A stretch of DNA of 64,000 bases. It comes from Gemmatimonadota bacterium (GTDB lineage Bacteria; Gemmatimonadota; Gemmatimonadetes; JACCXV01; JAHWKZ01). The notes beneath the pieces are model-generated. The model saw only the letters and a program-made list of their open reading frames with translations, searched no databases and was not told the DNA's origin. The translations under genes and the position numbers were made by a program. Below are positions 3 through 35,545 of this stretch, piece by piece. Within the stretch, counting starts at the first letter, position 1. Every line of letters begins with the position of its first letter. The stretch spans positions 33,433 through 97,432 of the forward strand of contig DATLFH010000088.1 in assembly GCA_035524965.1 (NCBI GenBank). Direction: 5' to 3'.

Positions 3-116
3 GGATCTCGGAGCGGGTCCGGCGGCGATACCGGGGAGGAGGAAAAGACCGCGGCGGAGCACACGATCTCGGCGGGGCCTCACGATCGGGAGGGAAGACG
101 CGATGACGGAGAGTAA
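3..116 (+). CDS. 3' end of a CDS entering from the left edge (partial, product unknown)
   Basis: Frame 3 is open from base 3 to TAA at 114-116 and overlaps the next start by 14 nt, matching the tight coupling seen across the window. Too short to assign. Confidence 0.4.
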   Translation, partial: GSRSGSGGDTGEEEKTAAEHTISAGPHDREGRRDDGE

Positions 117-576
117 GTTTCGCGAGCGCCGCTCGGCCTTCGTCGAGGAGGACGAGGAGGGGCAGGAGGAGACGGACGAGGCGCTGGCCGCCGAGCCTTC
201 GCCCGCTGAGCCTTCGTCCGCCGGGCCGCCCCCGGCCGCCGCGCCGCGGGCCGGACCCACGGAAACGGGCCCGCTCGGAGCGCGGGAAGAGGACCGCGAC
301 GGGGGAGAGTTCGACCCGCTGGAAGGGATCGAGCTCCCGGAAGCATCCTTCCTCGAGATCGTCCAGTACTTCGCGATCCAGGCGATCCAGTTTCTCGGCG
401 ACATGCCCCTGAACGAGGAGGGAGAGCGACGCGTCATGCCTCGCGAGGCCAAGCACTTCATCGATCTGCTCGGCATCCTGGAGGATCGGACGCGCGGGAA
501 CCTGACCGCCGAGGAAGCGCGCTATCTCGACGGGATTCTCACCGATCTCCGGCTCCGATATTTGCGGATCGGCTGA
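103..576 (+). CDS. DUF1844 domain protein with acidic/Pro-rich N-terminus
   Basis: C-terminal AIQFLGDMP...AKHFIDLLGILEDRTRGNLTAEEARYLDGILTDLRLRY is the DUF1844 pattern. Confidence 0.8.
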   Translation: MTESKFRERRSAFVEEDEEGQEETDEALAAEPSPAEPSSAGPPPAAAPRAGPTETGPLGAREEDRDGGEFDPLEGIELPEASFLEIVQYFAIQAIQFLGDMPLNEEGERRVMPREAKHFIDLLGILEDRTRGNLTAEEARYLDGILTDLRLRYLRIG

Positions 577-972
577 ATGAATGCCGCGGTCCTCGAGACG
601 CGAGCCAGGAGCGCCAGGGAGCAGGCGTACGCCCCCTACTCGGGGTACCGGGTGGGAGCGGCGCTGGAGAGCGAAGACGGCCGGGTGTTCGACGGCTGCA
701 ACGTCGAGAACGCGGCCTATTCGGTGACGTGCTGCGCCGAGCGGGTCGCGCTGTTCGCCGCGGTGGCGGCCGGGGCGCGGCGTTTCCGCCGGCTGGTCGT
801 GTGCGCCGGCGGCCCGGCGCCCTATCCGTGCGGCACGTGCCGGCAGGCGCTGGCCGAGTTCGAGCCCGGACTGCCGATCACCGTGCTGGGGGATGATGGC
901 CACCGGCGCGAGTACACGCTCCGGGAGCTCCTGCCGGAACCCTTCACGATGGAGCCGGGGACAACCTCATGA
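577..972 (+). CDS. cdd: Cytidine deaminase (homotetrameric type)
   Basis: [19 protein letters not shown] and PCGTCRQ zinc motifs. Confidence 0.95.
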
Positions 973-1253
973 AGATGGGTCGCGTGGTGGGTAGCGTCGT
1001 GGCGACGCGGAAGGACGAGAAGCTGACGGGACTCAAGCTCCTCGTCGTCCGCAACCTGGACCTGGAGCTGGGGCCGGAGGGTGGCTACGTGGTCGCGGCC
1101 GACGCGGTCGGTGCGGGGGCCGGCGAGGTCGTGCTCTACGCGACCGGCTCCTCCGCCCGGCAGACGGCGATGACCGACAACCGCCCGGTCGATGCCGTCA
1201 TCATGGCGATCGTGGACGAGTACGACGTCGGTGGCGCGCTGACCCGAACGTGA
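969..1253 (+). CDS. eutN: Bacterial microcompartment vertex (pentamer, BMC-P) protein, EutN/CcmL family
   Basis: [37 protein letters not shown] and [11 protein letters not shown] are the EutN/CcmL motifs; ATGA overlap with cdd. Confidence 0.93.
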
Positions 1254-2488
1254 GAGCCTTCCGCATCGCCGCGCTCCCGCTCCTCTTGGTCAGCTTTATC
1301 GGCTGCACCGATGACAGCCGGAGCCCGGTGGGGGTCGATCTCCTGCCGGGCGGCATCCTCGAGGGGGGGCTCCAGGTGATCACGCTGACCACGCTCGACC
1401 GGGCGGAGGACTTCGAGGTGTTTCCCGCCGGCCGCGGGACGGCCGATCGCCTCGTGACGGCGCGCTCGTGGCCGGAGGAGCCGGGGATCGAGAGCCGCGC
1501 GCTCGTCCGGTTCTCACTGAGCTCCCTGGACACGCTGCCCGAAGGGGCCGAGATCGTCGGCGCCGGCATCCGGCTCGTCTTCGTGCCGGTAGATCAGCCG
1601 ATCACCTTCCATCTCCACGTCATCACGGACTTCTGGAGCGAGGAGGCGGCGACGTGGGAGCGGCGCGACTTCGGGGAGCCGTGGACGACTCCCGGCGGCG
1701 ATTTCGAAGCCGCGCCCGTGGCCACGTTCACGATCCAGCCGACGGCGCCCGACACCGCGCGCGCCGATTCGGTCGCCTTCGCGGATTCGGTCCGGGTCTC
1801 GCTCCCGGCATCCCTGGTCGAGGCGTGGCGGTCGGAGACGACGCTCAACGCGGGGCTGATCCTGATCCAGGAGACGCCCGGGGAGGCGGTCGCCTTTCCT
1901 TCGGCCGCCGGGCTCAACCCGCTCGGGCCGCGGCTCGATGTCGATGTCCTGCTCGAGGACCCCGGCAGCTTGGCCTTCGTCCAGCGGATCCAGGCCGAGG
2001 AGGATACGTTCATCGTCGACGATCCGGGGAGTCTCCCGCCCGGCGGCCTCGCGGTCAGCGCGGGCGATCCCTTGCGCCGAACGTTCCTCGTCCATTCGCT
2101 CGAGGGGGTGCCGCCCGGGGCGACGGTCGTCGAGGCCCAACTGATCGTCTCCCCGGACGGGGTCCGCATTCCCGGCGACTCCCTGTTTCTGTCCCTGAAT
2201 CAGGTGCTGGGGGAGTTCCGGGAAGAGAATACGATCCTCGGCACGACGCTGGGAGTCGTCAGCCTCGCGGCCGGCGAGGCCCCCGACTCGCTCGTCTTCC
2301 AATCGGGCGCGCTGACCAGCCGGGTTCGTCAATGGCTGCGCGATCCGGAGAGCAACGAGGGCGTGATCCTCAGCGTTCAGGACGAGGATACGGCCTTCGG
2401 CGAGGTGCGGCTTTTCGGGCCCGACGCCGCGATCCTTCTTCGGCCACGGATACGCCTCGTTTTGTTTCCGCCTCCGCTCCCATCGTGA
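1250..2488 (+). CDS. Lipoprotein with DNRLRE/CBM96-like beta-sandwich repeats
   Basis: Signal peptide ending FIG-C; SRALVRF...WSEEAATW...PWTTPGGDF resembles DNRLRE-type domains, and a second similar unit follows. Confidence 0.6.
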
Positions 2489-3735
2489 GCCCCTTCGTGG
2501 GTGCCAGCCCGGCGGCTGGGGCGAGCCGGTTCTTTCGCCGAGGGGTTGTGGCGCTGGCGCTGGCGACCGTTCAACCCGCCGCGCCCGCCCTCGCCCAGGA
2601 GAGCGTCTTCAACCTGCCGGGGTTCGGCCTGCCGGCCCCCGGGGAGAGCGTCCGCTCCAGCGCGCTGGGCGGGGCCGGAACCGTACTCTCGGGCGAGGTC
2701 TTCTCGCTCGACAGCCCGGCGCCGCTCGGCCGATTCGAGCGCGCCGGCTTCTACCTCTCGCTCCTGGGCCAGCAGACCGAGGTCGAGGATCGCTCCGCCT
2801 CGGGCACGTTCGAGGACGTCGTGTTCCCGATGGCTCAGGTGGTGGTTCCCGCGGGGGATCTCACCCTGGCGGTCGGCTACTATCAGTTCGTCGACTTCGA
2901 CGCGGCGCTCGAGTCGAGCGTGGTCTTCGAGGCGGAGACCCTGCCGGCCACCCTCGATTCGGAGGGCGGGATCAGCGTCCTTTCTCCCGCGCTGGCGTAC
3001 GCCCTGGATGGTCGCACCTCAGCGGGCGTGTCCTTCGACATCTATCTCGGGTCGCGAGAGGAGATTCGTGCCATCGAGACCCTGGACGCGCTCGGAAGGT
3101 CGCTGTCGACCGCCGACACCCTCGTCCGGGACTTCGCCGGGGCGGGGCTGACCCTGGGAATCGAGCGGGGCCTCGGCGAAGGTCTACGCGTGGGGGCGTC
3201 GTACCGGCTCCGTCCAACGATCACGAGCGAGGTCACCGATGCCTCGGGCGAGGGACTGATCGGGCGCGAGAGCCAGCTCGACCTTCCCGACGAGCTCATG
3301 GTGGCGGCGGCGGCGCGCCTTTCATCGCAGGTCGAGGTCGGGGCTCTCGTCCGAACCTCCGGTTGGGGTGGATTCGAGAGCGACGCCCGCACCGCCGGCG
3401 ACTTCACGAACGCGGTCGAGATCGGCGGCGGCGTGGAGTACGCGCCCCAGTCCAGGACCGCGCTCCTGCTGGGCCCGCAGGCGCCGCTGCGCGCAGGCTT
3501 TCGGTGGCGCCGGCTTCCGGTCGAGGTCGACGGCGAGCCGGTCAGGGAGTGGACCACGAGCCTGGGGCACGGCCGCTCGTTCGGTGGACGCAGCCGGATC
3601 GACCTCGTGCTCGAGTACGGTGAGCGCGGATCGGTCGAAGCGAACGGTCTCTCGGAGCGGTTCCTGCGCTTCGGGGTCGGGGTGGCCGCGTTCGAGCAGT
3701 GGCGGCGCCAGGGAGGCGGAGGCGGGGCGAATTGA
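2485..3735 (+). CDS. Outer-membrane beta-barrel protein, FadL/OmpP1-like
   Basis: True start is GTG 2485, overlapping the upstream TGA (the ORF-track start at 1468 is a shadow extension). Signal peptide ending ALA-Q, SSALGGAG plug motif, alternating beta-strands. Confidence 0.65.
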   Translation: MSPFVGASPAAGASRFFRRGVVALALATVQPAAPALAQESVFNLPGFGLPAPGESVRSSALGGAGTVLSGEVFSLDSPAPLGRFERAGFYLSLLGQQTEVEDRSASGTFEDVVFPMAQVVVPAGDLTLAVGYYQFVDFDAALESSVVFEAETLPATLDSEGGISVLSPALAYALDGRTSAGVSFDIYLGSREEIRAIETLDALGRSLSTADTLVRDFAGAGLTLGIERGLGEGLRVGASYRLRPTITSEVTDASGEGLIGRESQLDLPDELMVAAAARLSSQVEVGALVRTSGWGGFESDARTAGDFTNAVEIGGGVEYAPQSRTALLLGPQAPLRAGFRWRRLPVEVDGEPVREWTTSLGHGRSFGGRSRIDLVLEYGERGSVEANGLSERFLRFGVGVAAFEQWRRQGGGGGAN

Positions 3736-3748
3736 GACGGCGCCCAAA

Positions 3749-3778
3749 TTGACATCCGGCCGGCGCGGTGCCTAACTT
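3749..3778 (+). promoter_or_regulatory. Putative sigma70 promoter for secDF
   Basis: TTGACA (3749-54), 18-bp spacer, TAACTT (3773-78), upstream of the secD ATG at 3815. Confidence 0.6.
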
Positions 3779-3814
3779 GCCGCCCGCTCACTCCTCTTTT
3801 CACAAGCGAAACTC

Positions 3815-5554
3815 ATGCGAAAAAAGCTGCAGATCCGCTGGGCGATCCTCGCCGTCTCCGCCCTGACCGCGCTCTGGTATCTGTGGCCGTCGATCCGCCT
3901 CTACTCGATGTCGCCTGCCGAGCGGGAGGCGATGGAGCAGGCCGATCCGTCGGCCTGGGAGAGCCTCAAGGGCCGCGCGATCAAGCTGGGGCTGGACCTC
4001 CAGGGAGGGATGCACCTCGTGCTCGAGCTCGACGAGTCCGAGCGCGCCTTCACCGATGAGGAGCGGCGGGATGCGGTCGATCGGGCGCTCGAGATCATCC
4101 GCAACCGCGTTGATCAGTTCGGAGTCTCCGAGCCGCTGATCCAGAAGGTCGGAGACGAGCGGATCATCATCGAGCTGCCCGGCATCCAGGACGAGGAGCG
4201 CGCCAAGGAGCTCGTCCAGCAGACCGCCTACCTCGAGTTCCAGATCGTCGTCGAAGGCGATCGGGCCGCGGACGAGATCCGCGCGCTCGATGCGGCCCTG
4301 GCCGGCCGACCCCTGGCCGCGGATACCACGGGGACGGCGGACACTACAGCGGGCGCTGACACCACGGCGGTTGCTGACACCACGGCGGCCGCGGGAACCG
4401 ACACCGTTGCCGCCGACACCGGCGCGCAGACGCTGGGGGAATTCCTGGGGGAGACCCCGCCGGCCGACGCCTCTGCGGCCGCCTTCCCGGGGGCCGAAGA
4501 CCGCCCGTTCTCGTCGCTTCTCCAGGTCGATCCGACCGGCCAGGCGCAGTTCGTCGTGCCCGAAGGCGAGGTGGCGCGCGTGCGCGCGCTGCTGGCCGAT
4601 TCGGCGGCCGCGCGCGAGATCGGTGACGAGATCGAGTGGCTGTGGGGGAGCGGGGCCGACACCTACGCTGACGGCCGATCGTACCGGGCGCTCTGGCTGG
4701 TCGAGAAGGAACCGGTCCTGACCGGTGAGGCGATCGGCACCGCGGCCGCCGGATTCGATCCCCAGTTGACGAATCAGCCGATCGTCTCGCTCGAGATGAC
4801 GCCCGAGGGCTCGACGACGTTCGCCGAGGTGACCGGCCAGCACGTGAACGAGCGCATGGCGATCGTCCTGGATCAGATCGTTCGCATGGCGCCCAACATC
4901 CGACAGCGGATCGTGGGGGGGAACGCCCAGATCGAGGGCTTCGATTCGGTGGAGGAGGCGCGCGACATCGCGATCGTCCTGCGCGCCGGGGCGCTGCCGG
5001 CGCCGCTCGACATCATCGAGGAGCGCACCGTGGGCCCGTCCCTCGGAGCGGATTCGATCCAGCAGGCCCGGCGCGCAGGGCTCATCGCGGTCCTCGTGGT
5101 CGCCGCCTTCATGATCTTCTACTATCGCGCTTCGGGCGCGATCGCGGTCGTCGCCCTGACGCTCAACATGGCGCTCATCATGGCGGCGCTGGCCGGCTTT
5201 GGGGCGACGCTCACCCTGCCGGGGATCGCCGGCCTGATCCTGACCGTGGGCATGGCGGTCGACGCCAACGTGCTCGTGTTCGAGCGAGTGCGAGAGGAGC
5301 TGGCGGTCGGCAAGTCCGTGCGTGCCGCGGTGGAGGCGGGCTACGACCGTGCCTTCGTGACGATCCTCGACGCCCAGATCACGACCCTGATCGCGGCCGC
5401 GGTCCTCTTCCAGTACGGGACCGGACCCATCAAGGGGTTCGCGATCGTCCTCACGATCGGGATCGTGAGCTCGATTTTCACCGCCGTCTTCGTCACGCGC
5501 ACGATCTTCGACACCTGGACGCGGCGCACGAGCGCTCGGAGGCTCAGCATCTGA
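3815..5554 (+). CDS. secD: Protein translocase subunit SecD
   Basis: LGLDLQGG, IIRNRVDQFGVSEP, IIIELPG, LRAGALPAP, GPSLG and AVDANVLVFER motifs. Confidence 0.98.
   Translation: MRKKLQIRWAILAVSALTALWYLWPSIRLYSMSPAEREAMEQADPSAWESLKGRAIKLGLDLQGGMHLVLELDESERAFTDEERRDAVDRALEIIRNRVDQFGVSEPLIQKVGDERIIIELPGIQDEERAKELVQQTAYLEFQIVVEGDRAADEIRALDAALAGRPLAADTTGTADTTAGADTTAVADTTAAAGTDTVAADTGAQTLGEFLGETPPADASAAAFPGAEDRPFSSLLQVDPTGQAQFVVPEGEVARVRALLADSAAAREIGDEIEWLWGSGADTYADGRSYRALWLVEKEPVLTGEAIGTAAAGFDPQLTNQPIVSLEMTPEGSTTFAEVTGQHVNERMAIVLDQIVRMAPNIRQRIVGGNAQIEGFDSVEEARDIAIVLRAGALPAPLDIIEERTVGPSLGADSIQQARRAGLIAVLVVAAFMIFYYRASGAIAVVALTLNMALIMAALAGFGATLTLPGIAGLILTVGMAVDANVLVFERVREELAVGKSVRAAVEAGYDRAFVTILDAQITTLIAAAVLFQYGTGPIKGFAIVLTIGIVSSIFTAVFVTRTIFDTWTRRTSARRLSI
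4319..4423 (+). repeat. Degenerate 18-bp coding repeat in secD encoding (A/T)DT(T/V/G) units
   Basis: Asp codons at 4322, 4340, 4358, 4376 (18-bp period), then 4400 and 4415: ADTTGTADTTAGADTTAVADTTAAAGTDTVAADTG. Confidence 0.85.
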
Positions 5555-5555
5555 G

Positions 5556-6518
5556 ATGATCTGGCTCTTCCGGGACGCGAACTATCCCTTCCTCAAGTAT
5601 CGCAAGTACGGCTACTGGATCTCGGGGCTGCTGACGCTGGCCACGGGGGTCTCGATCGCGCTCCACGGCGGCCTCCGGTACTCGATCGATTTTACCGGCG
5701 GCACGCTCATCCAGCTCGAGTTCGACGAGCCGGTCGAGACCCAGTCGCTGCGCCGGGCGGTGGGCCGGATACCGGGCCTGGAATCAAGCGAGGTCCAGCG
5801 CTTCGGCGATCCGTCGGACGTCGTCATCCGGGCTCAGGTCCCGGAAGGGGCGGAAGAAGACTTCGGCGACCGGATCGAATCCCATCTGAGACAATCGCCC
5901 GAGCTGGCCGGCCGCTCGTTCGACGTCGTGCGCACCGAAGCGGTAGGTCCCAAGATCGGCGAGGAGCTCAAGCGCGACGCCCTGCTGGCGATCCTCTACT
6001 CGCTCGGGCTGATCCTCATCTACGTCGCCTTCCGCTTCGATCTGAAGTTCGGGGTCGCGGCGATCGTCGCCACGGCGCACGACGTCATCCTCTCGCTGGG
6101 GATCTTCTCGCTTGTGAACAAGGAGATCTCGCTGGCCGTCGTCGCGGCGTTTCTCACGATCATCGGTTATTCGCTGAATGATACGATCGTCGTATTCGAC
6201 CGGATCCGGGAGGACCTGAAGCTGATGCGCCGGGAGCCCTACGAGGAGATCGTGAACAGGGCGCTCAACCAGACCCTTTCGCGCACCGTGCTGACCGCAG
6301 GCACGACCCTCGTCGTGCTCGCGTTCCTCTACTTCCTGGGCGGCGAGACGATCCACGATTTCGCGTTCGCGCTGATCATCGGGATCCTCATCGGGACCTA
6401 CTCGTCGATCTACATCGGGGCCCCGCTGGTCGTGGAATGGAAGACGCGGATCGAGGACCCCCGGGCGGAGATGGCCCCCAGGAAGAAAAGGAAGACGCGC
6501 GCCGCAACGCGCGGCTGA
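5556..6518 (+). CDS. secF: Protein translocase subunit SecF
   Basis: SIDFTGG, VGPKIG, GYSLNDTIVVFDRIRE, TLSRT and GTYSSIYI motifs. Confidence 0.98.
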   Translation: MIWLFRDANYPFLKYRKYGYWISGLLTLATGVSIALHGGLRYSIDFTGGTLIQLEFDEPVETQSLRRAVGRIPGLESSEVQRFGDPSDVVIRAQVPEGAEEDFGDRIESHLRQSPELAGRSFDVVRTEAVGPKIGEELKRDALLAILYSLGLILIYVAFRFDLKFGVAAIVATAHDVILSLGIFSLVNKEISLAVVAAFLTIIGYSLNDTIVVFDRIREDLKLMRREPYEEIVNRALNQTLSRTVLTAGTTLVVLAFLYFLGGETIHDFAFALIIGILIGTYSSIYIGAPLVVEWKTRIEDPRAEMAPRKKRKTRAATRG

Positions 6519-6546: not shown

Positions 6547-7329
6547 ATGGGCGCGGAAAGCGTTCCGGAGAATGTGGGCCGCGAGATCGTCGCGGCCGGC
6601 CGGCGGCTCTACGCCCGAGGCCTGATCGGGGGCTCGGAGGGGAACATCAGCGTCCGGCTGGATGGGGCGCGGGTCATGGCGACCCCGGGCGGCGCGTGCA
6701 AGGGGTTCCTCGAGCCGGACCTGCTCGTCGTGACGGACCTGGAAGGGCGTCGGCTCGCGGGCCGGGAGAACCCCTCGAGCGAGCTCAAGATGCATCTCCG
6801 GATCTACCATCTCCGGGATGACGTCCGCGCGGTCGTCCACGCCCACCCTCCGGCCGCGACCGGCTTCGCGATCGCCGGCCGGCCGCTCGACGAGTGCGTC
6901 GTCCCGGAGGTGATCGCCACCCTGGGCCAGGTCCCGATCGTCCCGTACGGGACGCCGTCGACAGAGGATCTGCCCGAGCGGCTCGCCCCCTACGTGCAGG
7001 CCCACGACGCTCTGCTTCTGGCGAACCATGGCGCGGTCACGTTCGCGCCCACGCTGGCGCGGGCGCTCAATGCCATGGAGTCGATCGAGCAGGCGGCGCG
7101 CTCGATGCTGGTCGCCCATCTGCTGGGACGGATCAACCGGCTCACCCGGGAGGACGTGGACAGCCTTCTTGCGCTCGATGCCTACGGCATGCCGGTGCGA
7201 AACCCCGGCTGCGCGTGGACGGCCGAGGCCGGCCCGGGTGGCGCTGGCGGCCCGGGTGGCGCCGACGATGACCTGCGCCGGCGGATCGCCGGGATCGTCC
7301 GGGAGACGCTGAACGGGACGAAAGGATGA
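6547..7329 (+). CDS. Class II (Zn) aldolase/adducin family protein with C-terminal linker plus amphipathic helix
   Basis: EGNISVR, TPGG, PSSELKMH, VHAHP and NHG metal/phosphate motifs; tail NPGC...GPGGAGGPGG-ADDDLRRRIAGIVRETL. Confidence 0.9.
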   Translation: MGAESVPENVGREIVAAGRRLYARGLIGGSEGNISVRLDGARVMATPGGACKGFLEPDLLVVTDLEGRRLAGRENPSSELKMHLRIYHLRDDVRAVVHAHPPAATGFAIAGRPLDECVVPEVIATLGQVPIVPYGTPSTEDLPERLAPYVQAHDALLLANHGAVTFAPTLARALNAMESIEQAARSMLVAHLLGRINRLTREDVDSLLALDAYGMPVRNPGCAWTAEAGPGGAGGPGGADDDLRRRIAGIVRETLNGTKG

Positions 7330-8219
7330 GGAGCGGGTCGGTCGCGCTGGTGACCGACTCGACGGCCGAGATCCACGCGCTCGATCCCGGCTCCGAGTGG
7401 CACGTCGTCCCGCTCGAGCTCGAGATCGACGGCCGGCGGCTCAAGGAGGGCCCCGAGCTCTCGGCGGACGAGTTTCACCGCCTCTTTCAGCGCGTGAACA
7501 CGGTTCCCGCCACGCTGCCGCCGTCGATCGACGCCTTCGCCTCCGCCTACGCCCCCCTCCTCGCTCGCCACGATGCGGTGCTTTCGATCCACCTCTCGGG
7601 CGGCTTGAGCGACACGGTCCTCCATGCGCGCGAGGCAGCCCGCCGTCTGGGCGCGGCCGACCTCGTCACGATCGTCGACTCGCGCCTGGCGGGGCTCGCG
7701 CTGGGCCTCCTTTGCCGCGAGGCCGAGACCCGGCTCGCGGAGGGAGCGACCGTCGGCGAGACAAAGGCCGATCTGGATCGGATCATCGCCGCCTGCCGGG
7801 TCTACTTCTCGGTGTTCACGCTCGATTTCCTGTATCTGAGCGGCCGGCTCGCACGTTCGAGTCGGCCCGACCAGGCCGCGGCAGGCGCCTCCCACGCGGC
7901 CGATGACCGCCCGATCCTGACGCTTGAGAACGGCCGGCTGTCGCTGGTCGAGCGGGTCATCGGGGAGACGACGCGCGTCCAACGGATCGCGGAGCTGCTG
8001 GAGGGGGAGTATGGGGTCGGCGAGCCGCTGATCGCTGGCTCGGTCCACGCGGGCCGGCGCGGCGACGAGGCGGCGGCCCGGCTCGAGCAGGCGCTCACCG
8101 CCGCGCTGCATCCCGGGACCGCCTGGTACCGAAGCCCGCTGGGTCCCGTGCTCTGCGCCCACACCGGCTTCGATGTCTGCGGGATCGCGGTGTATCCGCG
8201 CCGGCTCTCGAAACTATAG
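7326..8219 (+). CDS. DegV/FakB family lipid-binding protein (divergent)
   Basis: VTDST, VVPLEL, SIHLS, IVDS, TLDFL..SGRL, RPIL and AHTG are DegV-like motifs. Confidence 0.85.
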   Translation: MRSGSVALVTDSTAEIHALDPGSEWHVVPLELEIDGRRLKEGPELSADEFHRLFQRVNTVPATLPPSIDAFASAYAPLLARHDAVLSIHLSGGLSDTVLHAREAARRLGAADLVTIVDSRLAGLALGLLCREAETRLAEGATVGETKADLDRIIAACRVYFSVFTLDFLYLSGRLARSSRPDQAAAGASHAADDRPILTLENGRLSLVERVIGETTRVQRIAELLEGEYGVGEPLIAGSVHAGRRGDEAAARLEQALTAALHPGTAWYRSPLGPVLCAHTGFDVCGIAVYPRRLSKL

Positions 8220-8222
8220 GCG

Positions 8223-8483
8223 CTAGGCGGCTTCGAGCCGGGCCACGTGGGCGCCCAGGCGGGACTTCTGGCGCGCCGCGGCGTTCGCATGGATCACGCC
8301 CTTGCTGGCGAGCCGGTCGAGCAGGCTCTCGGCCCCGCGCAGGGCCGATCGTGCACCATCCGGCGACTCCGCCTGGCGCACCTTCTTGATCGCTGTCCGG
8401 AGGCGGGATCGATCGCGGCGGTTCCTCTCCCGCTGCTTGAGGTTGGTGCGGGCGCGCTTCTCGGCGGATTTGGCTTTCGGCAC
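8223..8483 (-). CDS. rpsT: 30S ribosomal protein S20
   Basis: GTG start at 8483 with AAGAGAGG RBS; KSAEKRARTNLKQRERNR...LDRLASKGVIHANAAARQKSRL. Confidence 0.97.
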   Translation of the reverse strand: MPKAKSAEKRARTNLKQRERNRRDRSRLRTAIKKVRQAESPDGARSALRGAESLLDRLASKGVIHANAAARQKSRLGAHVARLEAA

Positions 8484-8516
8484 GGTTCCTCTCTTGATGA
8501 TGTCGATATCGCTGTG

Positions 8517-8545
8517 AAGATAGAAGCCGGTCGGGGGGGCGGCAA
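8517..8545 (-). promoter_or_regulatory. Putative sigma70 promoter for rpsT
   Basis: Minus strand TTGCCG-17 bp-TATCTT. Confidence 0.55.
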
Positions 8546-8579
8546 CGTGCGCCGAAGAGATTTGCGATGCCCGGCCGCT

Positions 8580-8609
8580 TTGACACGCGCCTTCGGGCAG
8601 GACTACTTT
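8580..8609 (+). promoter_or_regulatory. Putative sigma70 promoter for the S2P-trpS-scpAB-rluB operon
   Basis: TTGACA (8580-85)-18 bp-TACTTT (8604-09), divergent from the rpsT promoter. Confidence 0.6.
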
Positions 8610-8664
8610 CTGCCACTCACCCCGTCCGCAACAACGTCCGCAACCACAACGAAAACACCGCCCC

Positions 8665-9303
8665 GTGCTGGAATCGTTCCTGTTGCTGGCCCCGATGCTC
8701 CTGTTCTCGATCATCGTGCACGAGTGCGCGCACGGGTACGTGGCCGAGTGGTGGGGAGACCCCACGGCGCGGATGCTGGGCCGCCTGACGCTGAACCCGC
8801 TGCCGCACATCGATCCGCTGGGATCGATCCTCGTCCCGGGCCTCCTCCTCATGTCCGGCTCGGGGGTTCTGTTCGGATGGGCCAAGCCGGTTCCGGTGAC
8901 GCCGCAGAATTTCCGCGACCGCAGGTGGGGCGACATCACGGTATCACTCGCCGGGCCGGCTTCCAACGTGTTGCTGGCGCTGGGCCTGGCGGGGGTGCTC
9001 CTGGGAGCCCGGTTGGCCACCGGCGGTGTACCCAACGCGCTCTTCCAGGTCTGCGCATACGGCATCCTCCTGAACCTGGTCCTTGCCGTCTTCAACCTGC
9101 TTCCCGTGCCGCCGCTCGACGGCTCTCACGTCGTCGCCAACTTGCTGCCGAGGCGGACCGCGTACGCCTATCAGTCGCTCGGTCGGTTCGGTCTGGTGAT
9201 CGTCTTGCTCCTGCTCTTCATCCCGGGGCTGATAGACGTGATCTTCCTGCCCGCCCGGGTGGCGACCGGAGTGCTGTTGCAGGTCGCGACCGGATTCTGG
9301 TGA
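8665..9303 (+). CDS. Site-2 protease family (M50) membrane metalloprotease
   Basis: HECAH, NPLPHID, WAKPVP and NLLPVPPLDG motifs. Confidence 0.93.
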   Translation: MLESFLLLAPMLLFSIIVHECAHGYVAEWWGDPTARMLGRLTLNPLPHIDPLGSILVPGLLLMSGSGVLFGWAKPVPVTPQNFRDRRWGDITVSLAGPASNVLLALGLAGVLLGARLATGGVPNALFQVCAYGILLNLVLAVFNLLPVPPLDGSHVVANLLPRRTAYAYQSLGRFGLVIVLLLLFIPGLIDVIFLPARVATGVLLQVATGFW

Positions 9304-10355
9304 GCGGGGGGCCCACGGAGCCGGCCGGCGCCCCCGACCCGAGCCACGGTCGGGGTCGGGTCATGAGCGGGATCCAGCCCACCGGCGAGATTCACATCGG
9401 CAACTACTTCGGCGCGATCCGGAACTGGGTCGAGCTGCAGGACCGCTACGAGTGCTTCTACGCGATCGTCGACTATCACGCGATCGCGACGCCTTACGAT
9501 CCGGTCGGGTTCCCGGAGCTGCTCGAGGACGCCGCTGTGTCGCTCCTGGCGGCCGGGCTCGACCCCGAGCGCTGTCATCTCTTCCTGCAGTCGGAGGTGC
9601 CCGAGCACACCGAGCTGGCCTGGATCCTCACGACGCTGGCGCCGCTCGGGCAGCTTCAGCGGATGACCCAGTTCAAGGAGAAGGCGGGGGAGGGGGAGGA
9701 GGTCGCGATCCGGGCCGGCCTTCTCATGTACCCGGTCCTTCAGGCGGCGGACATCCTCGTCTACAAGGCGGATCGGGTGCCCGTGGGCGAGGATCAGGTC
9801 CAGCACCTGGAGCTGGCGCGCACGCTGGCGCGCCGATTCAACACCACCTTCGGCGCGACTTTCCCCGAGCCGCAGCCGCTCCTGACCCGGGCCCGGCGCA
9901 TCCTGGGGCTGGACGGGCAAAGCAAGATGTCGAAGACGAAGGGGAACCACATCGGGCTGCTCGACCCGCCGGAGACGATCCGCGAGAAGATGGCGACGGC
10001 GTTCACCGATCCGCAGCGGAAGCGTCGATCGGACCCGGGCCGTCCCGAGGTCTGCAACGTGTTCACCCTCCACCACTACTTCAGCGACCCGGATACAATC
10101 GCCCGGGTCGATCGCGAGTGCAGGAGCGCCCGGATCGGCTGCTACGAAGACAAGATGCTGCTCGCCGACATCATGATCGAGTCGCTGAGGCCGATGCGGG
10201 AGCGGGCCGCCGAGCTGCGCCGCGATCCGGGTCGGATCCGTGAGATCCTGGACCGCGGCCGCGCGGCCGCGCGCCGGGTAGCGAGCGAAACGATGGACGA
10301 GGTGCGCGCGGCGCTGGGACTATGGCCGACATCGATCCGGACATCCAGAGCGTAA
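9300..10355 (+). CDS. trpS: Tryptophan--tRNA ligase
   Basis: SGIQPTG, HIGN, YPVLQAADI, VPVGEDQ and KMSKT. Start taken as GTG 9300 overlapping the upstream TGA (ATG 9363 is an alternative). Confidence 0.96.
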   Translation: MSGGPTEPAGAPDPSHGRGRVMSGIQPTGEIHIGNYFGAIRNWVELQDRYECFYAIVDYHAIATPYDPVGFPELLEDAAVSLLAAGLDPERCHLFLQSEVPEHTELAWILTTLAPLGQLQRMTQFKEKAGEGEEVAIRAGLLMYPVLQAADILVYKADRVPVGEDQVQHLELARTLARRFNTTFGATFPEPQPLLTRARRILGLDGQSKMSKTKGNHIGLLDPPETIREKMATAFTDPQRKRRSDPGRPEVCNVFTLHHYFSDPDTIARVDRECRSARIGCYEDKMLLADIMIESLRPMRERAAELRRDPGRIREILDRGRAAARRVASETMDEVRAALGLWPTSIRTSRA

Positions 10356-25959: not shown

Positions 25960-26502
25960 ATGCTGTGTGCGGACTGCCAGAAGAATAAAGCTATCGTCCA
26001 TTTCACCCAGATCGTCAACGACGAGACGGAAACGTTCCACCTGTGCCAGAGCTGCGCGCAGGCGCGCGGTCTGAAGACGACGCCGAGCACGTCACAGGTG
26101 CCGCTTTCCGACTTCCTGTACGAGTTGGGCGCCCCGATCTTCACGAAGGCGACGAGCGCCAACCTGTCATGCCCGCGGTGCGGCTGTACGTTCCGCCAGT
26201 TTCGGAAGACGGGACGACTGGGCTGCGCGGAGTGCTACACGACCTTCGAGCAGGAGATGAGCGCGCTTCTCAGGAAGATCCATGGTTCGAACGAGCACGT
26301 GGGGATCCTGGAATCCGAAGGCATCGAGCCCCAGGACGATCGTCAGGCGCAGATGGCCGACCTCCGGCGCCGCCTCCGGCAAGCGGTCGATAGCGAGGAG
26401 TACGAACGGGCGGCCGAGCTGCGCGACCAGATCGTCGAAATCGAGGAGGAGCGTCGTGCTGTCGGGCAGGCGGCTCCCCGGAGCAGCCGTGGAGAGACGT
26501 GA
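25960..26502 (+). CDS. mcsA: McsA (four CXXC motifs plus UVR domain)
   Basis: CADC, CQSC, CPRC, CAEC; C-terminal EEYERAAELRDQI. Confidence 0.95.
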   Translation: MLCADCQKNKAIVHFTQIVNDETETFHLCQSCAQARGLKTTPSTSQVPLSDFLYELGAPIFTKATSANLSCPRCGCTFRQFRKTGRLGCAECYTTFEQEMSALLRKIHGSNEHVGILESEGIEPQDDRQAQMADLRRRLRQAVDSEEYERAAELRDQIVEIEEERRAVGQAAPRSSRGET

Positions 26503-27566
26503 TGACGTTGCCCGAAGACGACCTGCTGAAGCCGGTCGAGGGCGGACTGGCGTGGATCAGCGGCGACGGCCCGCACGCCGACGTCATCCTGTCCACGCGC
26601 ATCCGGCTGGCCCGCAACCTGGAGCGGTTCGCGTTCCGGGAGACGATCACCGGCGACCAGCAGGACCTGGTGACCGAGGAGCTGCTCGAATCCCTTCAGG
26701 CGGCCGATCTCGAACAGGGAACGCAGTTCCTGAAACTCGGAGTTCTGACCGATATCGATCTCACTCTGCTCCTGGAGCGACATCTGGTCAGCCGTGAAAT
26801 GATCAAGTTCAAGGAAGCAAGCGCGCTGCTGATCGGCGACGGCGGACGGGTCGCGCTGCTGATCAACGAAGAGGACCATCTGCGGATCCAGTCGCTGACA
26901 CCGGGCTTGCAGCTCGAGGAATCCTGGCAGATCGCGAGCCGGACCGAGCAGGCGCTCCGGCAGCGGTGCCAGTTCGCCTATCATCACCGGTTCGGGTTCT
27001 TGACGAGCTGCCCGACGAACACGGGTACCGGCCTGCGGGCCTCGGTTCTGATCCACCTGCCGGGCCTGGTGCTGACTCGTGAGATCCACAAGGTCCTCCA
27101 GGGCCTCGCCCAGATCGGGCTGACTTTCCGCGGCCTCTACGGCGAGGGCTCGGATGTGATCGGGAACTACTTCCAGCTGTCGAATCAGACCACGCTTGGG
27201 AAGAGTGAGGACGAGCTGGTGGGCCACCTGGACCGGATCACCCGTCAGGTGATCGAGTATGAGGAAAACGCACGGCAGGTCCTGGTCAGGGACGCCCTGG
27301 ACGAGATCGAGGACAAGGTCTGGCGCGCGTACGGACTGCTGCGCAGCGCGCGCTCGATGTCTTTCGACGAGATGATGAACCTGCTGTCGGCAGTGCGCCT
27401 CGGGGTCAGCATGAAACTGCTCCCCGACATAGGGGTATCGAAGTTGAATCGTCTATTGCTGTGGACCCAGGTGGCGCATCTCGAAAAGCGGGCGCAACGC
27501 TCGCTCGACGCGCGGGAGCGCGAGATTGAGCGGGCTTCCCTGGTGCGGGAGATCCTTGAAGGGTAG
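26499..27566 (+). CDS. mcsB: Protein-arginine kinase McsB
   Basis: STRIRLARN, LLERHLVS, INEEDHLR, CPTNTGTGLRAS and QLSNQTTLG motifs. Confidence 0.96.
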   Translation: MMTLPEDDLLKPVEGGLAWISGDGPHADVILSTRIRLARNLERFAFRETITGDQQDLVTEELLESLQAADLEQGTQFLKLGVLTDIDLTLLLERHLVSREMIKFKEASALLIGDGGRVALLINEEDHLRIQSLTPGLQLEESWQIASRTEQALRQRCQFAYHHRFGFLTSCPTNTGTGLRASVLIHLPGLVLTREIHKVLQGLAQIGLTFRGLYGEGSDVIGNYFQLSNQTTLGKSEDELVGHLDRITRQVIEYEENARQVLVRDALDEIEDKVWRAYGLLRSARSMSFDEMMNLLSAVRLGVSMKLLPDIGVSKLNRLLLWTQVAHLEKRAQRSLDAREREIERASLVREILEG

Positions 27567-27583
27567 GTCGCTGAGCGACCTAC
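27563..27583. promoter_or_regulatory. Perfect 9-3-9 inverted repeat between mcsB and clpC
   Basis: GTAGGTCGC-TGA-GCGACCTAC with no U-tract. Confidence 0.5.
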
Positions 27584-27611
27584 GAATCCTGCAGAAGAGA
27601 CGTAGAGGTCT

Positions 27612-30104
27612 ATGAATAGCAACTTTACGGATCGAGTTCGAAAAGTGCTGTCGATGGCCCGCGAGGAAGCGACCCGGCTGCATCACGACTACGTCGGAAC
27701 CGAGCATATCCTGCTCGGCCTGATCCGCGAAGGCGAGGGTGTAGCCGCCGCGATCCTCACCAACTTGAACGTGGATTTGGACGAGCTGCGGCAACGAATC
27801 GAGGAGCGGGTGGATCAGGGAAGGAGCGACATGGCCGCCGACGAGGTTCCCTATACGACCCGCGCCAAGAAGGTGCTGGAGTTTTCTGTCGCCGAGGCGC
27901 GCAGCCTTAAGCATTCCTATGTTGGAACCGAGCATCTAATGCTCGGATTGCTGCGCGAGGAGAAGGGGGTCGCCGCACAGGTGCTCGACGAGACCGGCGT
28001 AACGATCGATGTCGCGCGCAACGAAACGATTCGACTGCTCGGGGGGGAGCTGAGCTCTATGGAAAGCGGAGGCCAGACATCCAAGTCGAGCGACAAGAAA
28101 TCGAAGACGCCGGCGCTTGATCATTTCTGCCGGGATCTGACCGATCTCGCCCGCGAAGGCGAGCTGGATCCGACGATCGGTCGAGGGAAGGAGATCGAGC
28201 GCGTCATCGAGGTGCTATCCCGGCGCAAGAAGAACAACCCGGTGCTGATCGGCGAGCCGGGTGTGGGGAAGACCGCCATCGTCGAGGGTCTGGCGCAGCG
28301 TATCACGAGTGGCGAGATCGTCCACAGTCTGCGCGATCACCGGGTGCTGTCGCTGGATATGGCAGCCGTCATCGCGGGGACCAAGTACCGCGGTCAGTTC
28401 GAGGAGCGCCTCAAGGCCGTGATCAACGAGATCAAGCAATCGCGGAATGTGATCCTCTTCATCGACGAGCTCCACACTCTGGTCGGGGCCGGTGCGGCCG
28501 AGGGCGCCATAGACGCCTCGAACATGCTGAAGCCGGCGCTGGCCCGCGGCGAGCTGCAGTGCGTCGGCGCCTCGACGCTCAACGAATACCGCAAGTACAT
28601 CGAGAAGGACGGTGCGCTCGAGCGGCGGTTCCAGCCGGTGGTCGTGGATCCCCCGACGATCGAGGAGACATTCGAGATCCTGAAGGGGCTCCGATCCCGG
28701 TACGCCGAGCACCACAACGTGGAGATCCCGGACGGCGCCATCGAAATCGCGGCGCGGCTCTCGGAGCGCTACATCACCGATCGCTTTCTACCCGACAAGG
28801 CGATCGACGTGATCGACGAAGCCTGCGCGCGGGTCCATCTGGCGACCCAGGTTCCGCCTCCCGAGCTGCTGGCGCTCGAGGAAGAGGTTCAGGAGATCAT
28901 CGGACGCAAGGATCACGCGATCAAGGCCCAGGACTATGAAACGGCGGCCAAGCTGCGCGATACCGAACGCGAGCTGAAATCCACGATCAAGCGGAAGAAG
29001 GTCGAGTGGGAGCGCGGCAACCATGCCGACCGGCCGACCCTCTCACTGGAGGACGTGGCCTTCATCGTGAGTCGCTGGACAGGTGTACCGGTCGTGCGGC
29101 TGCGCGAGGAGGAAACGGAACGGCTGCTGCACATGGAAGACGAGATCCACAAGCACATCGTCGGTCAGGACGCCGCGATCCATGCGATTTCCAAGGCGAT
29201 CCGCCGCACCCGCGCCGGCCTCAAGGATCCTCGGCGGCCGATCGGATCGTTCATCTTCTCGGGTCCCACCGGAGTCGGGAAGACCGAGCTCGCGCGCGCC
29301 CTGGCGCGGTTCCTTTTCGCCGATCCCAACGCGCTCATCCGGATCGATATGTCCGAGTACATGGAGAAGTTCACGGTGAGCCGGCTGCTGGGCGCCCCGC
29401 CGGGCTACGTGGGTTATGAGGATTCGGGCTATCTCACCAAGGAGGTTCGGCGCAAGCCCTACTCGGTGGTGCTGCTCGACGAGATCGAAAAGGCCCATCC
29501 GGATGTATTCAACATCCTTCTCCAGATCCTCGACGAGGGGCACATCACCGACAATTATGGTCGTAAGATCGACTTCAAGAACACGGTCGTGATCATGACC
29601 TCGAACATCGGCGCGCGCCGCATCATGGGCTCCCGCTCGCTGGGATTCCAGCGCCCGAGCGAGACCGCCCGGATCGACCAGATCGAGGAGGCGGTGAAGG
29701 ACGAGATCAACAAGACCTTCAACCCCGAGTTCCTGAACCGTCTCGACGAGACGATCGTCTTCCATCCACTTACCGAAGATCACATCGTCCAGGTCGTGGA
29801 CATCCTGTTCAAGGAGATCCTCGACCGCCTCGATGACCGTGACATCACCCTCGTCCTCTCGGAGGGGGCCAAACGGTACCTGGCCCGTAAGGGCTTCGAC
29901 GAGAAGTTCGGGGCCCGGCCGCTGAAGCGTGCGATGCAACGCTACCTGCAGGATCCCTTCTCCGAGGATCTGCTGAAAGGCCGGTTCGTTCCGGGTGACG
30001 AGGTCGTGGTCGAGGTGAGCGAGGACGAGGACCGCCTCGTCTTCACGTCCCGGGGCTCGCGCGCGCCACGGGAGGAGGAATCGGTTCAGGAAGAGGTGGG
30101 CTGA
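27612..30104 (+). CDS. clpC: ATP-dependent Clp protease ATP-binding subunit ClpC
   Basis: Two Clp-N repeats (GTEH), Walker A motifs GEPGVGKT and [11 protein letters not shown] middle domain, LGF ClpP-docking loop. Confidence 0.97.
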
Positions 30105-33093: not shown

Positions 33094-34169
33094 TGAACCA
33101 TCCGCAGGGGATCCCTGATCCCGGAGACCGAGGAGGCGGCGGGGAATTGGCACGAGCGAGTGTACCGCTGGGCGAGCTCGCCGCAGCGATCGGGGCCCGG
33201 CTGGAGGGGAATCCCCGTTTGGAGATCCGCGGAGTCTCGACGCTCGAGGGTGCAGGCCCGACGGATCTCTCCTTCCTTGCCAACGCCCGCTACGAGGAGG
33301 CTGCCCGCCTGACCAATGCGGGGGCGATCGTGGTCGGATCGGACTACCGCGCCAACGGCCAGAACGTCCTGCGGAGCGACAACCCTTACCTGGCGTTCGC
33401 TCAGGCGATCGCCCTCCTCTGGCCCCCTCCCCCGGTCGAGCCAGGCGTTGCGCCCACCGCAGTCGTCGATGCGACGACCCGGGTTCCGGGCGACGCGTCC
33501 ATCGGGCACCACGCGGTCATCGGCGCGAACGTCGATCTCGGGCGGGGTGTCGTGGTCGGAGCGGGAACGGTGATCGAGGAGAGCATCGTGATCGGGGAAG
33601 GGTCGCGACTCTTTCCGCGGGTCACGCTCCTGCACGGAACCCGTCTCGGGAAGCGTTGCGTGGTTCAGAGTGGCAGCGTGCTAGGCGCCGACGGCTTCGG
33701 ATACGCCACGGATGGCGCCGGCCGCCATCACAAGGTCCCCCAGCGCGGCGGACTCGTGCTGGGCGATGACGTCGAGATCGGCGCCGGCGTCACGATCGAC
33801 CGCGGATCGATGGAGGATACTACGATCGGGGATGGTGCCAAAATTGACAACCTGGTCCATATCGGGCACAATGTAAAGATAGGTAAAAACGCGATCATCG
33901 TTGCCCAGGTGGGCGTCGCGGGCAGCACGAAAGTCGGCGACTTCGTCGTCGTGGGTGGACAGGCGGGAATCGTGGGCCACGTGAGTATCGGGGATCGCGC
34001 GCGGATCGGGGGGCAGGCGGGAGTCATCGGTGATGTCCCCGCCGGGGCGGAGTATTCGGGCTATCCCGCCCGCTCCCATCGCGAACAGATGCGGGCCCAC
34101 GTGCTCTTCAGCCGTCTCCCGGAGATCTTCGCGCGTCTCAAGGCGATCGAGCAGAGGATTCGCGCATGA
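33093..34169 (+). CDS. lpxD: UDP-3-O-(3-hydroxyacyl)glucosamine N-acyltransferase
   Basis: [26 protein letters not shown] and [11 protein letters not shown] motifs. Confidence 0.97.
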
Positions 34170-35545
34170 AGAACGATCGCCAGCTGACGATCGCGCGGCC
34201 GGTCACCTACAGCGGCGTTGGCCTCCATACCGGCGACCAGAGCCATCTGACGTTCCTTCCCGCCGAGGCCAACACCGGCCTGCGCTTCGTCCGCGTAGAC
34301 CTCGATGGAGATCCCGAGATCATCGTCGATCCGGAGCATGTCATCGGGGTCGATCGGGGGACCTCGATCGGTCTCGACGGAAGCAAGGTTCATACGATCG
34401 AGCACGTGCTGGCGGCTGTTGCGGCGCGCGGAATCGACAATTTGCGGATTGAGCTGGACGCGAGCGAGCCGCCGGTCGGTGACGGTTCCAGCTTGCCTTT
34501 CTGGCGCGCGCTGCAGGAGGCGGGGCTCAAGGAGCTGGACGCTCCACGACGCCGATATCGGGTGGAGGAACCGATCTTCTACGCGGACGGAGATGTGGAG
34601 ATCACCCTTTTGCCATCCGATCGCCTGCAGGTTTCCTTCACGATCGATTTCGACCATCCGCTGGTAGATCACCAGTTCGAATCCTTCGAGATCACGCCCG
34701 AGATCTTCGAACGGGAGATCGCACCGGCTCGGACTTTCGGCTTCCTTCACGAGATCGAGCAGCTGAAAGCGGCGGGGCTGATCCGCGGAGGGAACCTGAG
34801 GAATGCGATTGTGATCGGCGAGGATAAGATTCTCAACGAAGAGCGGCTCCGCTTTCCGACGGAACTCGTCCGTCACAAGATCCTCGACCTGCTCGGAGAT
34901 CTGAAAGTGCTCAATGTCGATATCGAGGCTCACATCGTCGCCCATCGGTCGGGGCATCGCGCCAACTTCGCTCTCGTCCAGCTGCTGAAGCGGCGGATCG
35001 ATGGACAGAGCGGCAACGGTGCGGGCAGGCTCGGGGAGACGCGCCGGGGGCCGTCCAGAACGCGCCGGGGGGCGTCCAGGGCTCGCCGGGAGAGGAAGGT
35101 CGAGCGCCCCACGATACTGGACGTCAGCCGCATCCTGGAAATCCTGCCCCATCGCTATCCGTTCCTGCTGGTGGATCGTGTCGTGAGGATCGAGGAGGGC
35201 CGACGGGTGGTGGGGATCAAGAACGTGACGATCAGCGAGCCGTTCTTCCAGGGTCATTTCCCCGGTCATCCGGTCATGCCCGGCGTTTTGATCGTAGAGG
35301 CGATGGGGCAGGTCGGCGGGTTGCTGTTGATGAGCCTGGTCGATGATCCAACCGGAAAGGTGGTCTACTTCACCGGGTTGGACAGAGTCCGGTTCCGCCA
35401 GCCGGTGCTGCCCGGCGATCAGCTCATCTGCGAAGTCGAACTGGTCCGGCGCCGGGGAACGTTCTGCAAGATGCGCGGGGTTGCGCGCGTGGACGGTGCG
35501 GTGGTTGCCGAGGCCGACCTCATGGCCTCGTTGGTTCCAAAATGA
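34166..35545 (+). CDS. lpxC-fabZ: Bifunctional LpxC deacetylase / FabZ dehydratase fusion
   Basis: [23 protein letters not shown] and HKILDLLGD motifs (LpxC); [11 protein letters not shown] and [16 protein letters not shown] motifs (FabZ). Confidence 0.97.
35039..35090 (+). repeat. 21-bp tandem duplication in the LpxC-FabZ linker
   Basis: ACGCGCCGGGGGCCGTCCAGA / ACGCGCCGGGGGGCGTCCAGG / GCTCGCCGGG encode [17 protein letters not shown]. Confidence 0.75.

Follow-up and report, generated by a model that had tools for sequence, protein, structure and literature searches.

Our study examined a stretch of 64,000 nucleotides (hereafter the window) from the genome of a Gemmatimonadota bacterium (assembly GCA_035524965.1, contig DATLFH010000088.1, positions 33,433 to 97,432 of the forward strand), and in particular a gene for a class II aldolase whose protein ends in a tail resembling the encapsulation peptides (EPs) of bacterial microcompartments (BMCs). 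The aldolase gene is followed by a DegV-family gene and preceded by a string of overlapping genes, which ends with secF and includes a gene for a EutN/CcmL vertex protein (the pentamer, BMC-P) separated from the aldolase by 5,294 nt (Table 1). The tail of this enzyme and the company kept by its relatives make it a candidate for microcompartment cargo that is encoded apart from any hexamer (BMC-H) gene.

Table 1. Coordinates of the aldolase gene, the parts of its product and the neighbouring genes (positions within the window)
Feature	Position	Strand	Basis and remarks
Class II aldolase/adducin-fold gene, 260 aa	6547-7329	+	Open reading frame, translation, PF00596
Catalytic core, residues 12-214	6580-7188	+	Invariant metal/phosphate-site residues, structure alignments (6voq, 6btd, 4c24)
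RNPGC motif, residues 218-222	7198-7212	+	Alignment; Cys222 (7210-7212) invariant
Hypervariable Gly/Pro-rich linker, residues 223-239	7213-7263	+	Column entropy, indels, low pLDDT
18-nt direct tandem duplication (7230-7247 / 7248-7265)	7230-7265	+	Repeat search, 89% identity; encodes GPGGAG/GPGGAD
Terminal amphipathic helix DDDLRRRIAGIVRETL, residues 240-255, candidate encapsulation peptide	7264-7311	+	AlphaFold2, one-face conservation
DegV-family gene	7326-8219	+	PF02645, E = 5e-49; 4-nt overlap with aldolase stop
DUF1844-cdd-EutN-lipoprotein-outer-membrane-type protein-secD-secF string	103-6518		Overlapping stops and starts
Cytidine deaminase gene cdd	577-972	+	PF00383, PF08211; immediately upstream of EutN
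EutN/CcmL (BMC-P) vertex-protein gene	969-1253	+	PF03319, E = 7e-31; overlaps cdd stop and next gene's start
Lipoprotein gene	1250-2488		Next after EutN
Outer-membrane-type protein gene	~2500-3735		After lipoprotein gene
secF	5556-6518	+	PF02355

The aldolase, its C-terminal tail and its relatives

The aldolase was matched by PF00596 over residues 12-187 with an E value of 6e-47 (160.3 bits, against a gathering cut-off of 22.2). An alignment of 80 homologues, together with pairwise mapping onto FucA of E. coli, found N33, S77, S78, E79, H98, H100 and H161 to be invariant, and the His triad and catalytic Glu of FucA (H92, H94, H155 and E73) correspond to H98, H100, H161 and E79 of the window protein. 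Judged by these residues, the protein is a metal-dependent enzyme of the class II aldolase fold with an intact metal site. An AlphaFold2 model, which was built on 80 homologues and reached a mean predicted local distance difference test score (pLDDT) of 87, was compared with the PDB using Foldseek, and this returned YgbL/OtnC (6vop and 6voq), FucA (4c24 and 1fua) and DrdA (6btd) with target TM-scores of 0.86-0.91 over about 205 residues. The window enzyme has this fold and the metal ligands in common with these three free enzymes, but they are only 203-212 aa long and lack any C-terminal extension; the last 45-50 residues of the window protein are therefore an addition to the fold.

The position of the general acid differs from that of characterized enzymes, as Tyr113 of FucA is replaced by Glu121 (6907-6909). 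This Glu is invariant across the whole clade formed by the Gemmatimonadota aldolases and those of the acidobacterial ACI microcompartment type, while Tyr is retained at this position in YgbL, DrdA and FucA, and the change hints that the acid/base chemistry or the substrate is not the same. None of the NCBIfam equivalog cut-offs tested (FucA, OtnC, DrdA and MtnB) was reached by the window aldolase; the best score, 136.6 bits, was that for OtnC (cut-off 250), and the FucA models gave 77-105 bits against cut-offs of 264-400. The OtnC-like, DrdA and FucA structures also scored about equally by profile (129-134 bits), DrdA being a 5-deoxyribulose-1-phosphate aldolase. As the profile scores were equal and no equivalog exceeded its cut-off, no specific function or substrate can be transferred to the enzyme.

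Beyond the core, the tail consists of a short cysteine motif, a linker and a terminal helix, which is followed by five variable residues that end the protein. The cysteine of the RNPGC motif is invariant in the aligned Gemmatimonadota and ACI sequences, with the R, N, P and G conserved at 94-98% among the Gemmatimonadota, and a cysteine after the aldolase fold is kept across phyla, as PxC in the ACI aldolases and as CxxC or C..C in other aldolases that are encoded in microcompartment loci. It may serve in metal binding, a disulfide or redox chemistry. The stretch from Cys222 to the helix ranges from 7 to 36 aa across the Gemmatimonadota clade. In the window protein it contains GPGGAGGPGG (residues 229-238), and the underlying 18-nt duplication was absent from the three closest homologues and was not listed by Tandem Repeats Finder at its thresholds. 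The initial annotation of this DNA, which was made from the sequence without database searches, had described the aldolase reading frame, the NPGC residues, a Gly/Pro linker containing an 18-bp duplication and a terminal helix, and all of these descriptions were borne out.

The AlphaFold2 model showed a confident core, disorder at residues 230-237 (pLDDT <50) and a helix at residues 238-257 (pLDDT ~66-72). Conservation was measured on 88 Gemmatimonadota homologues, for which the mean column entropy was 0.67 in the core (residues 12-215), 1.94 in the linker (residues 223-239), where indels also occurred, and 1.32 in the helix (residues 240-255). Within the helix, conservation was highest at V251 (99%), I250 (98%) and L255 (98%), followed by L243 (92%), R244 (88%), A248 (85%) and R252 (82%); position 247 was Ile in 61% of sequences, and positions 241, 242, 245, 246 and 249 varied freely. 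The conserved positions are spaced i, i+4, i+7, i+8 and i+12, and by this alignment the uneven conservation is that of a single conserved face on a predicted tethered helix. All complete Gemmatimonadota homologues, in about 90 clusters, carry the tail, and a profile model of the helix matched aldolases alone among 7,102 open reading frames (ORFs) from ~0.8 Mb of Gemmatimonadota loci. EPs have been defined (Kinney et al.; Aussignargues et al. 2015) as predicted amphipathic helices of 15-20 aa at a protein terminus, preceded by a poorly conserved linker, and they have properties rather than sequence in common (PMC4594438). The tail of the window aldolase has each of these properties, being a terminal, amphipathic helix behind a poorly conserved linker.

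Homologues were sought among 5.8 billion proteins. The search returned about 90 clusters at 64-79% identity to the window aldolase, and those bearing names were from Gemmatimonadota. The next matches, at 52-60% identity, were acidobacterial ACI aldolases, and these were reached by an unbiased search of sequences. In both of the two acidobacterial contexts examined, the aldolase was followed by a BMC-H gene, three BMC-P genes, a small ORF and a 2-hydroxyacid dehydrogenase gene; the 2021 catalogue describes this gene set as its ACI microcompartment, in which the pfam00596 aldolase carries a C-terminal EP (Sutter et al. 2021, PMC8217296, Supplementary Data 2). The EP-like architecture proposed in the initial annotation is thus conserved through the clade, and the nearest relatives outside it are EP-tagged enzymes of ACI loci.

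A maximum-likelihood tree of the core recovered the Gemmatimonadota aldolases as a monophyletic clade (support 98/99) nested among microcompartment-locus aldolases of Acidobacteriota, Planctomycetota and Aminicenantes, a tree that includes some long branches and for which the microcompartment loci had been retrieved via their pentamer genes. The locus-encoded aldolases of these three phyla all possess the Cys motif, the linker and the terminal helix. Of the 131 cluster representatives (50% identity) that are nearest to the window aldolase and have a complete core, 48 had tails of <20 aa and about 83 had tails of at least 20 aa, many of these with the same architecture. Class II aldolase homologues that have no association with microcompartments are reported to lack a C-terminal extension (Aussignargues et al. 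2015, PMC4594438).

The ACI aldolases are the closest comparison, as they resemble the window enzyme in the metal site, the Tyr113-to-Glu change, the invariant cysteine after the fold, the variable linker and the C-terminal helix. They differ in context, with the ACI gene directly preceding the BMC-H, three BMC-P and 2-hydroxyacid dehydrogenase genes whereas the Gemmatimonadota gene has no shell neighbour. They also differ within the tail, where the ACI helix reads EIRLTYRELTALIEDAVRNLR against LRRRIAxIVRETL in Gemmatimonadota, with an insertion or deletion of 3 aa between them, and where the ACI tail has a second cysteine in a CQV motif. The class II aldolases of the PVM, PVM-like and GRM5 types belong to the same enzyme family and have a C-terminal EP of ~17 aa after an unconserved linker (PMC4594438), but they cleave fuculose- or rhamnulose-1-phosphate and are encoded in complete loci, and the window enzyme has Glu in place of the general-acid Tyr.

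Genomic setting of the aldolase and pentamer genes

Around 19 Gemmatimonadota aldolase loci, one of them at 84% identity to the window aldolase, displayed the gene order (Archease)-RtcB-aldolase-DegV-S20-M50-TrpRS-ScpA-ScpB. DegV followed the aldolase in every locus for which downstream DNA was available (~16 loci), and the ACI aldolases had no DegV neighbour. Walking upstream of the aldolase in another metagenome-assembled genome (MAG) revealed glycolysis genes, SecG and a rhomboid gene, and no shell genes. The initial annotation saw the aldolase as parked between secF and the DegV gene, but the pair that is conserved is aldolase and DegV, within a housekeeping string in which RtcB normally comes first. 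Because all of the ~19 loci have the order RtcB-aldolase-DegV, the junction of secF and aldolase is peculiar to this genome. One relative, with an EutN of 96% identity, has TatD after SecF, and when the sequence beyond SecF in relatives was compared by tblastx, the output was noise from high G+C content and nothing else.

The secF-aldolase junction looks genuine, as a separately assembled Logan contig (4,064 nt, depth 37.7) spans it without mismatch, this contig possibly deriving from the same sample as the window and so not being a fully independent witness. The Logan contig is 3 nt shorter than the window at position 6488, near the 3' end of secF, which may reflect strain variation or a minor difference between the assemblies. 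Downstream of DegV, in the region 8223-10355, a mechanical listing gives a single ORF of 702 aa (8247-10355) that is a composite; synteny with related loci shows that the region actually holds a minus-strand gene for ribosomal protein S20 together with genes for an M50 peptidase (8665-9303) and TrpRS (~9300-10355).

The pentamer gene has a setting of its own. A scan of species-representative genomes with the window EutN, which shares 53% identity with the first of the BMC-P proteins in an ACI locus, found orthologues in ~45 Gemmatimonadota species at 68-89% identity, with cdd directly before EutN in all of them, and >25 of these species also have the DUF1844-cdd-EutN-lipoprotein-SecDF block. 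Neither an aldolase nor a BMC-H gene was present within 10 kb of cdd-EutN in any of the ~45 species. Orthologues of this gene in other phyla lie directly after a BMC-H gene, and not after cdd. The two genes that follow EutN were considered as organelle parts and rejected, as they encode a lipoprotein and an outer-membrane-type protein.

The initial annotation took the 5.3 kb between pentamer and aldolase as a sign of linkage. This proximity was found in this genome only, and the >25 relatives with the cdd-EutN-SecDF block lack the aldolase beside it; a conserved neighbourhood of aldolase and EutN was therefore rejected. The spacing carries no functional weight and is an accident of a genome-specific rearrangement, with no operon-like link between the two genes. 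Another MAG probably holds both genes, as judged from adjacent accession blocks alone: its aldolase and EutN (MBA3585498 and MBA3584531) fall in one NCBI accession block.

Further microcompartment parts were sought in the window and beyond it. The 64-kb window contained no aldehyde dehydrogenase, phosphotransacylase, DeoC or 2-hydroxyacid dehydrogenase, and the remainder of its genes were of housekeeping type. Contigs of the source soil metagenome, compared with three BMC-H genes, yielded 100-250 BMC-H-like pieces at depths of 3-42, a result that assigns no hexamer to this genome. One such piece, of 118 nt, had a depth of 41.9, compared with 37-41 for the window organism, a similarity in depth from which the genome of origin cannot be assigned.

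A possible cargo of a dispersed microcompartment

Two microcompartment types of the 2021 catalogue are found mostly in Gemmatimonadetes (PMC8217296). The first, FRAG8, has scattered shell genes with lone BMC-P satellites, including a 95-aa 'paleGreen' protein, has DeoC in most cases and has been linked to nucleoside/deoxyribose metabolism; its aldehyde dehydrogenase is closest to that of ACI. A genome of this type is expected to hold a BMC-H, the full BMC-P triplet and DeoC elsewhere, sometimes with an aldehyde dehydrogenase that carries a C-terminal EP. In the second, MUF2, every pfam00596 aldolase has a C-terminal EP, and a BMC-H gene is encoded alongside. Class II aldolases with a C-terminal EP are also known from the ACI, MUF3, PVM and some HO types (PMC8217296), and SPU5 has since joined this group (PMC11585597). 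A literature search found no paper on Gemmatimonadota microcompartments later than the 2021 catalogue.

The window resembles FRAG8 in phylum and in having scattered shell genes with a lone BMC-P satellite, this being the pentamer gene in the cdd-envelope-SecDF operon, an arrangement present in the ~45 Gemmatimonadota species. It differs from FRAG8 in that the catalogue lists DeoC (pfam01791), an aldehyde dehydrogenase and sometimes pfam02502 for this type, but no pfam00596 aldolase. The resemblance to MUF2 lies in an EP-tagged pfam00596 aldolase from the same phylum, often encoded apart from the main locus; however, the MUF2 aldolase accompanies a BMC-H gene, and neither in the window nor in the ~19 loci of the window aldolase's clade does a BMC-H occur within 10 kb. 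Nor is the window an ACI-type locus, as it lacks a BMC-H, a second and third BMC-P and the dehydrogenase, and the closest named homologues of its aldolase are from Gemmatimonadota.

Our preferred reading, to which we assign a probability of roughly 0.55, is that the aldolase is an encapsulated cargo of a dispersed, FRAG8-like microcompartment, with its vertex protein supplied by the cdd operon. Under this model the core would probably form the tetramer usual for its fold and would cleave a ketose-1-phosphate to dihydroxyacetone phosphate and an aldehyde. The disordered linker, free to vary in length and sequence, would tether the helix of ~16 residues, and the hydrophobic face of the helix (L243, I247, A248, I250, V251 and L255) would bind the inner surface of the shell or gather cargo. 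Such binding may recruit the aldolase into a dispersed, FRAG8-like microcompartment of Gemmatimonadota, of which the cdd-linked EutN pentamer would be another scattered part. We infer shell binding, encapsulation and the existence of hexamer genes in this genome.

Cleavage of 5-deoxyribulose-1-phosphate by a DrdA-type enzyme and of deoxyribose-5-phosphate by DeoC both yield acetaldehyde, so that, speculatively, two aldolases could feed one aldehyde dehydrogenase. The idea of an aldehyde derived from a nucleoside or deoxysugar, as put forward in the initial annotation, is likewise speculative and would be compatible with the catalogue's reading of the FRAG8 and SPU types.

Several findings weigh against encapsulation. 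Searches with EP models in FRAG genomes gave no positives (PMC8217296). In the ~19 Gemmatimonadota loci, no shell gene, BMC-H included, is found within 10 kb of the aldolase. In the 64-kb window, neither a BMC-H nor any additional BMC-P was detected by tblastn when PduA, a CcmK-like protein and ACI shell proteins served as queries. An Eisenbacteria BMC-H, used as the seed for a homologue search, retrieved proteins from Anaerolineae and Eisenbacteria-like organisms, and none from Gemmatimonadota. The housekeeping string that contains the aldolase has stops and starts that overlap, which suggests constitutive expression, and this would be unusual for microcompartment cargo.

The helix itself also provides arguments on this side. 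A check of its amphipathicity, which the initial annotation had proposed, gave a divided answer, as one face is conserved but the hydrophobic moment is moderate (0.57-0.66) and is reached by 8.7% of shuffled sequences. Scoring against an EP profile had been proposed as well and was carried out with our own model of the ACI tail, which scored the Gemmatimonadota tails no better than shuffles. Alignment of the ACI and Gemmatimonadota tails by hhalign was weak (P = 0.0095 over just 13 columns), and tails of other aldolases were hardly enriched in matches to the Gemmatimonadota helix model, 8/67 of them scoring above the 95% shuffle level. That the helices are not detectably homologous by sequence accords with EPs having properties rather than sequence in common (PMC4594438), and it leaves the EP assignment resting on architecture and phylogeny.

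These same findings can be read differently. The enzyme may descend from a microcompartment aldolase and now be a cytosolic housekeeping protein, its helix having been kept for self-association, solubility or another partner. This explanation accommodates the conserved housekeeping string with its overlapping neighbours and lack of a shell gene within 10 kb, the divergence of the helix from the ACI helix past detection by profile models, and the failure to recover a hexamer gene either in the 64-kb window or by the BMC-H-seeded homologue search. It has more difficulty with the hydrophobic face of the helix, conserved at 85-99% over ~90 lineages while the linker drifts, which is the signature of a binding module in use, and with a BMC-P gene, whose sole known role is the capping of shells, being conserved in the phylum and present in this genome. 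We regard a retired EP of this kind, the main rival, as rather unlikely, at about one chance in four. A tail that was never microcompartmental in this lineage appears more doubtful still. In that case the helix would be regulatory or would bind a partner, for example by docking DegV or the membrane, and its likeness to an EP would be generic; the aldolase and DegV genes do share 4 nt and occur as a pair in every locus with downstream DNA available, amphipathic terminal helices are common, the observed moment is reached by 8.7% of shuffles, and the tail does not significantly match known EP tails in sequence. Yet sister clades that have the Cys motif, linker and helix, and that have no DegV neighbour, lie inside microcompartment loci, so that inheritance of the tail together with an EP role is the simplest reading.

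A further alternative, which we consider highly improbable, is that the tagged aldolase docks on free EutN pentamers and forms a complex without a shell. Its support comes from the absence of BMC-H within 10 kb of cdd-EutN in the ~45 Gemmatimonadota species, even though a BMC-H gene precedes the pentamer orthologue in other phyla. To our knowledge, there is no example of a pentamer-only assembly. The FRAG8 and MUF2 loci of Gemmatimonadetes in the catalogue, moreover, include BMC-H genes (PMC8217296).

Encapsulation of the aldolase in a dispersed, FRAG8-like microcompartment, our preferred reading, admits a stronger version that we put forward tentatively and hold to be less probable than not. 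The FRAG types have no obvious signature enzyme that generates an aldehyde (PMC8217296), and the window aldolase may be the missing signature enzyme of FRAG8. The organelle would then be a fully dispersed relative of ACI, with its parts wired into housekeeping operons, inherited vertically and constitutive or 'domesticated'. In place of a mobile, inducible operon, the vertex protein would be encoded in the cdd-lipoprotein-outer-membrane-type protein-SecDF string and the tagged aldolase in the RtcB-aldolase-DegV string. If this is the case, surveys restricted to the neighbours of shell genes would miss cargo that is betrayed only by a terminal tag.

If the tail is a working EP, the fragmented microcompartments of Gemmatimonadota gain a candidate cargo in this aldolase, which would also provide a functional link between FRAG8 and the ACI type of soil Acidobacteria and would illustrate that a tag can reveal cargo encoded far from shell genes. 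The initial annotation regarded the system as undescribed, but dispersed microcompartments of Gemmatimonadetes (FRAG8) and EP-tagged MUF2 aldolases were both in the 2021 catalogue. The gain is incremental, as tagged class II aldolases and dispersed microcompartments had already been described and the chemistry and encapsulation proposed here are predictions; the window gene is a modest addition to what had been catalogued. Of the earlier proposal of microcompartment cargo, the EP-like tag remains credible, whereas the linkage argument and the claim to an undescribed system do not stand.

Other features of the window

Three further regions of the window encode domain combinations or gene pairings of their own. 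An ORF of 788 aa on the minus strand (52002-54368) combines an EgtD-type histidine methyltransferase domain (PF10017) with the DinB_2 and FGE-sulfatase domains of EgtB, and from this domain content it looks like a fused enzyme of ergothioneine synthesis. At 25960-30104, a gene for an ATP:guanido phosphotransferase (McsB-like, PF00217) directly precedes a ClpC/ClpB-type AAA+ gene with Clp_N and UVR motifs, and this pair resembles, by analogy, the protein-arginine-kinase/Clp pairing of Firmicutes. Finally, an ORF of 459 aa (34166-35545) is a fusion of LpxC with a FabA/FabZ-like dehydratase, and lies in an lpxD-lpxC/fabZ-lpxA cluster after bamA and ompH.

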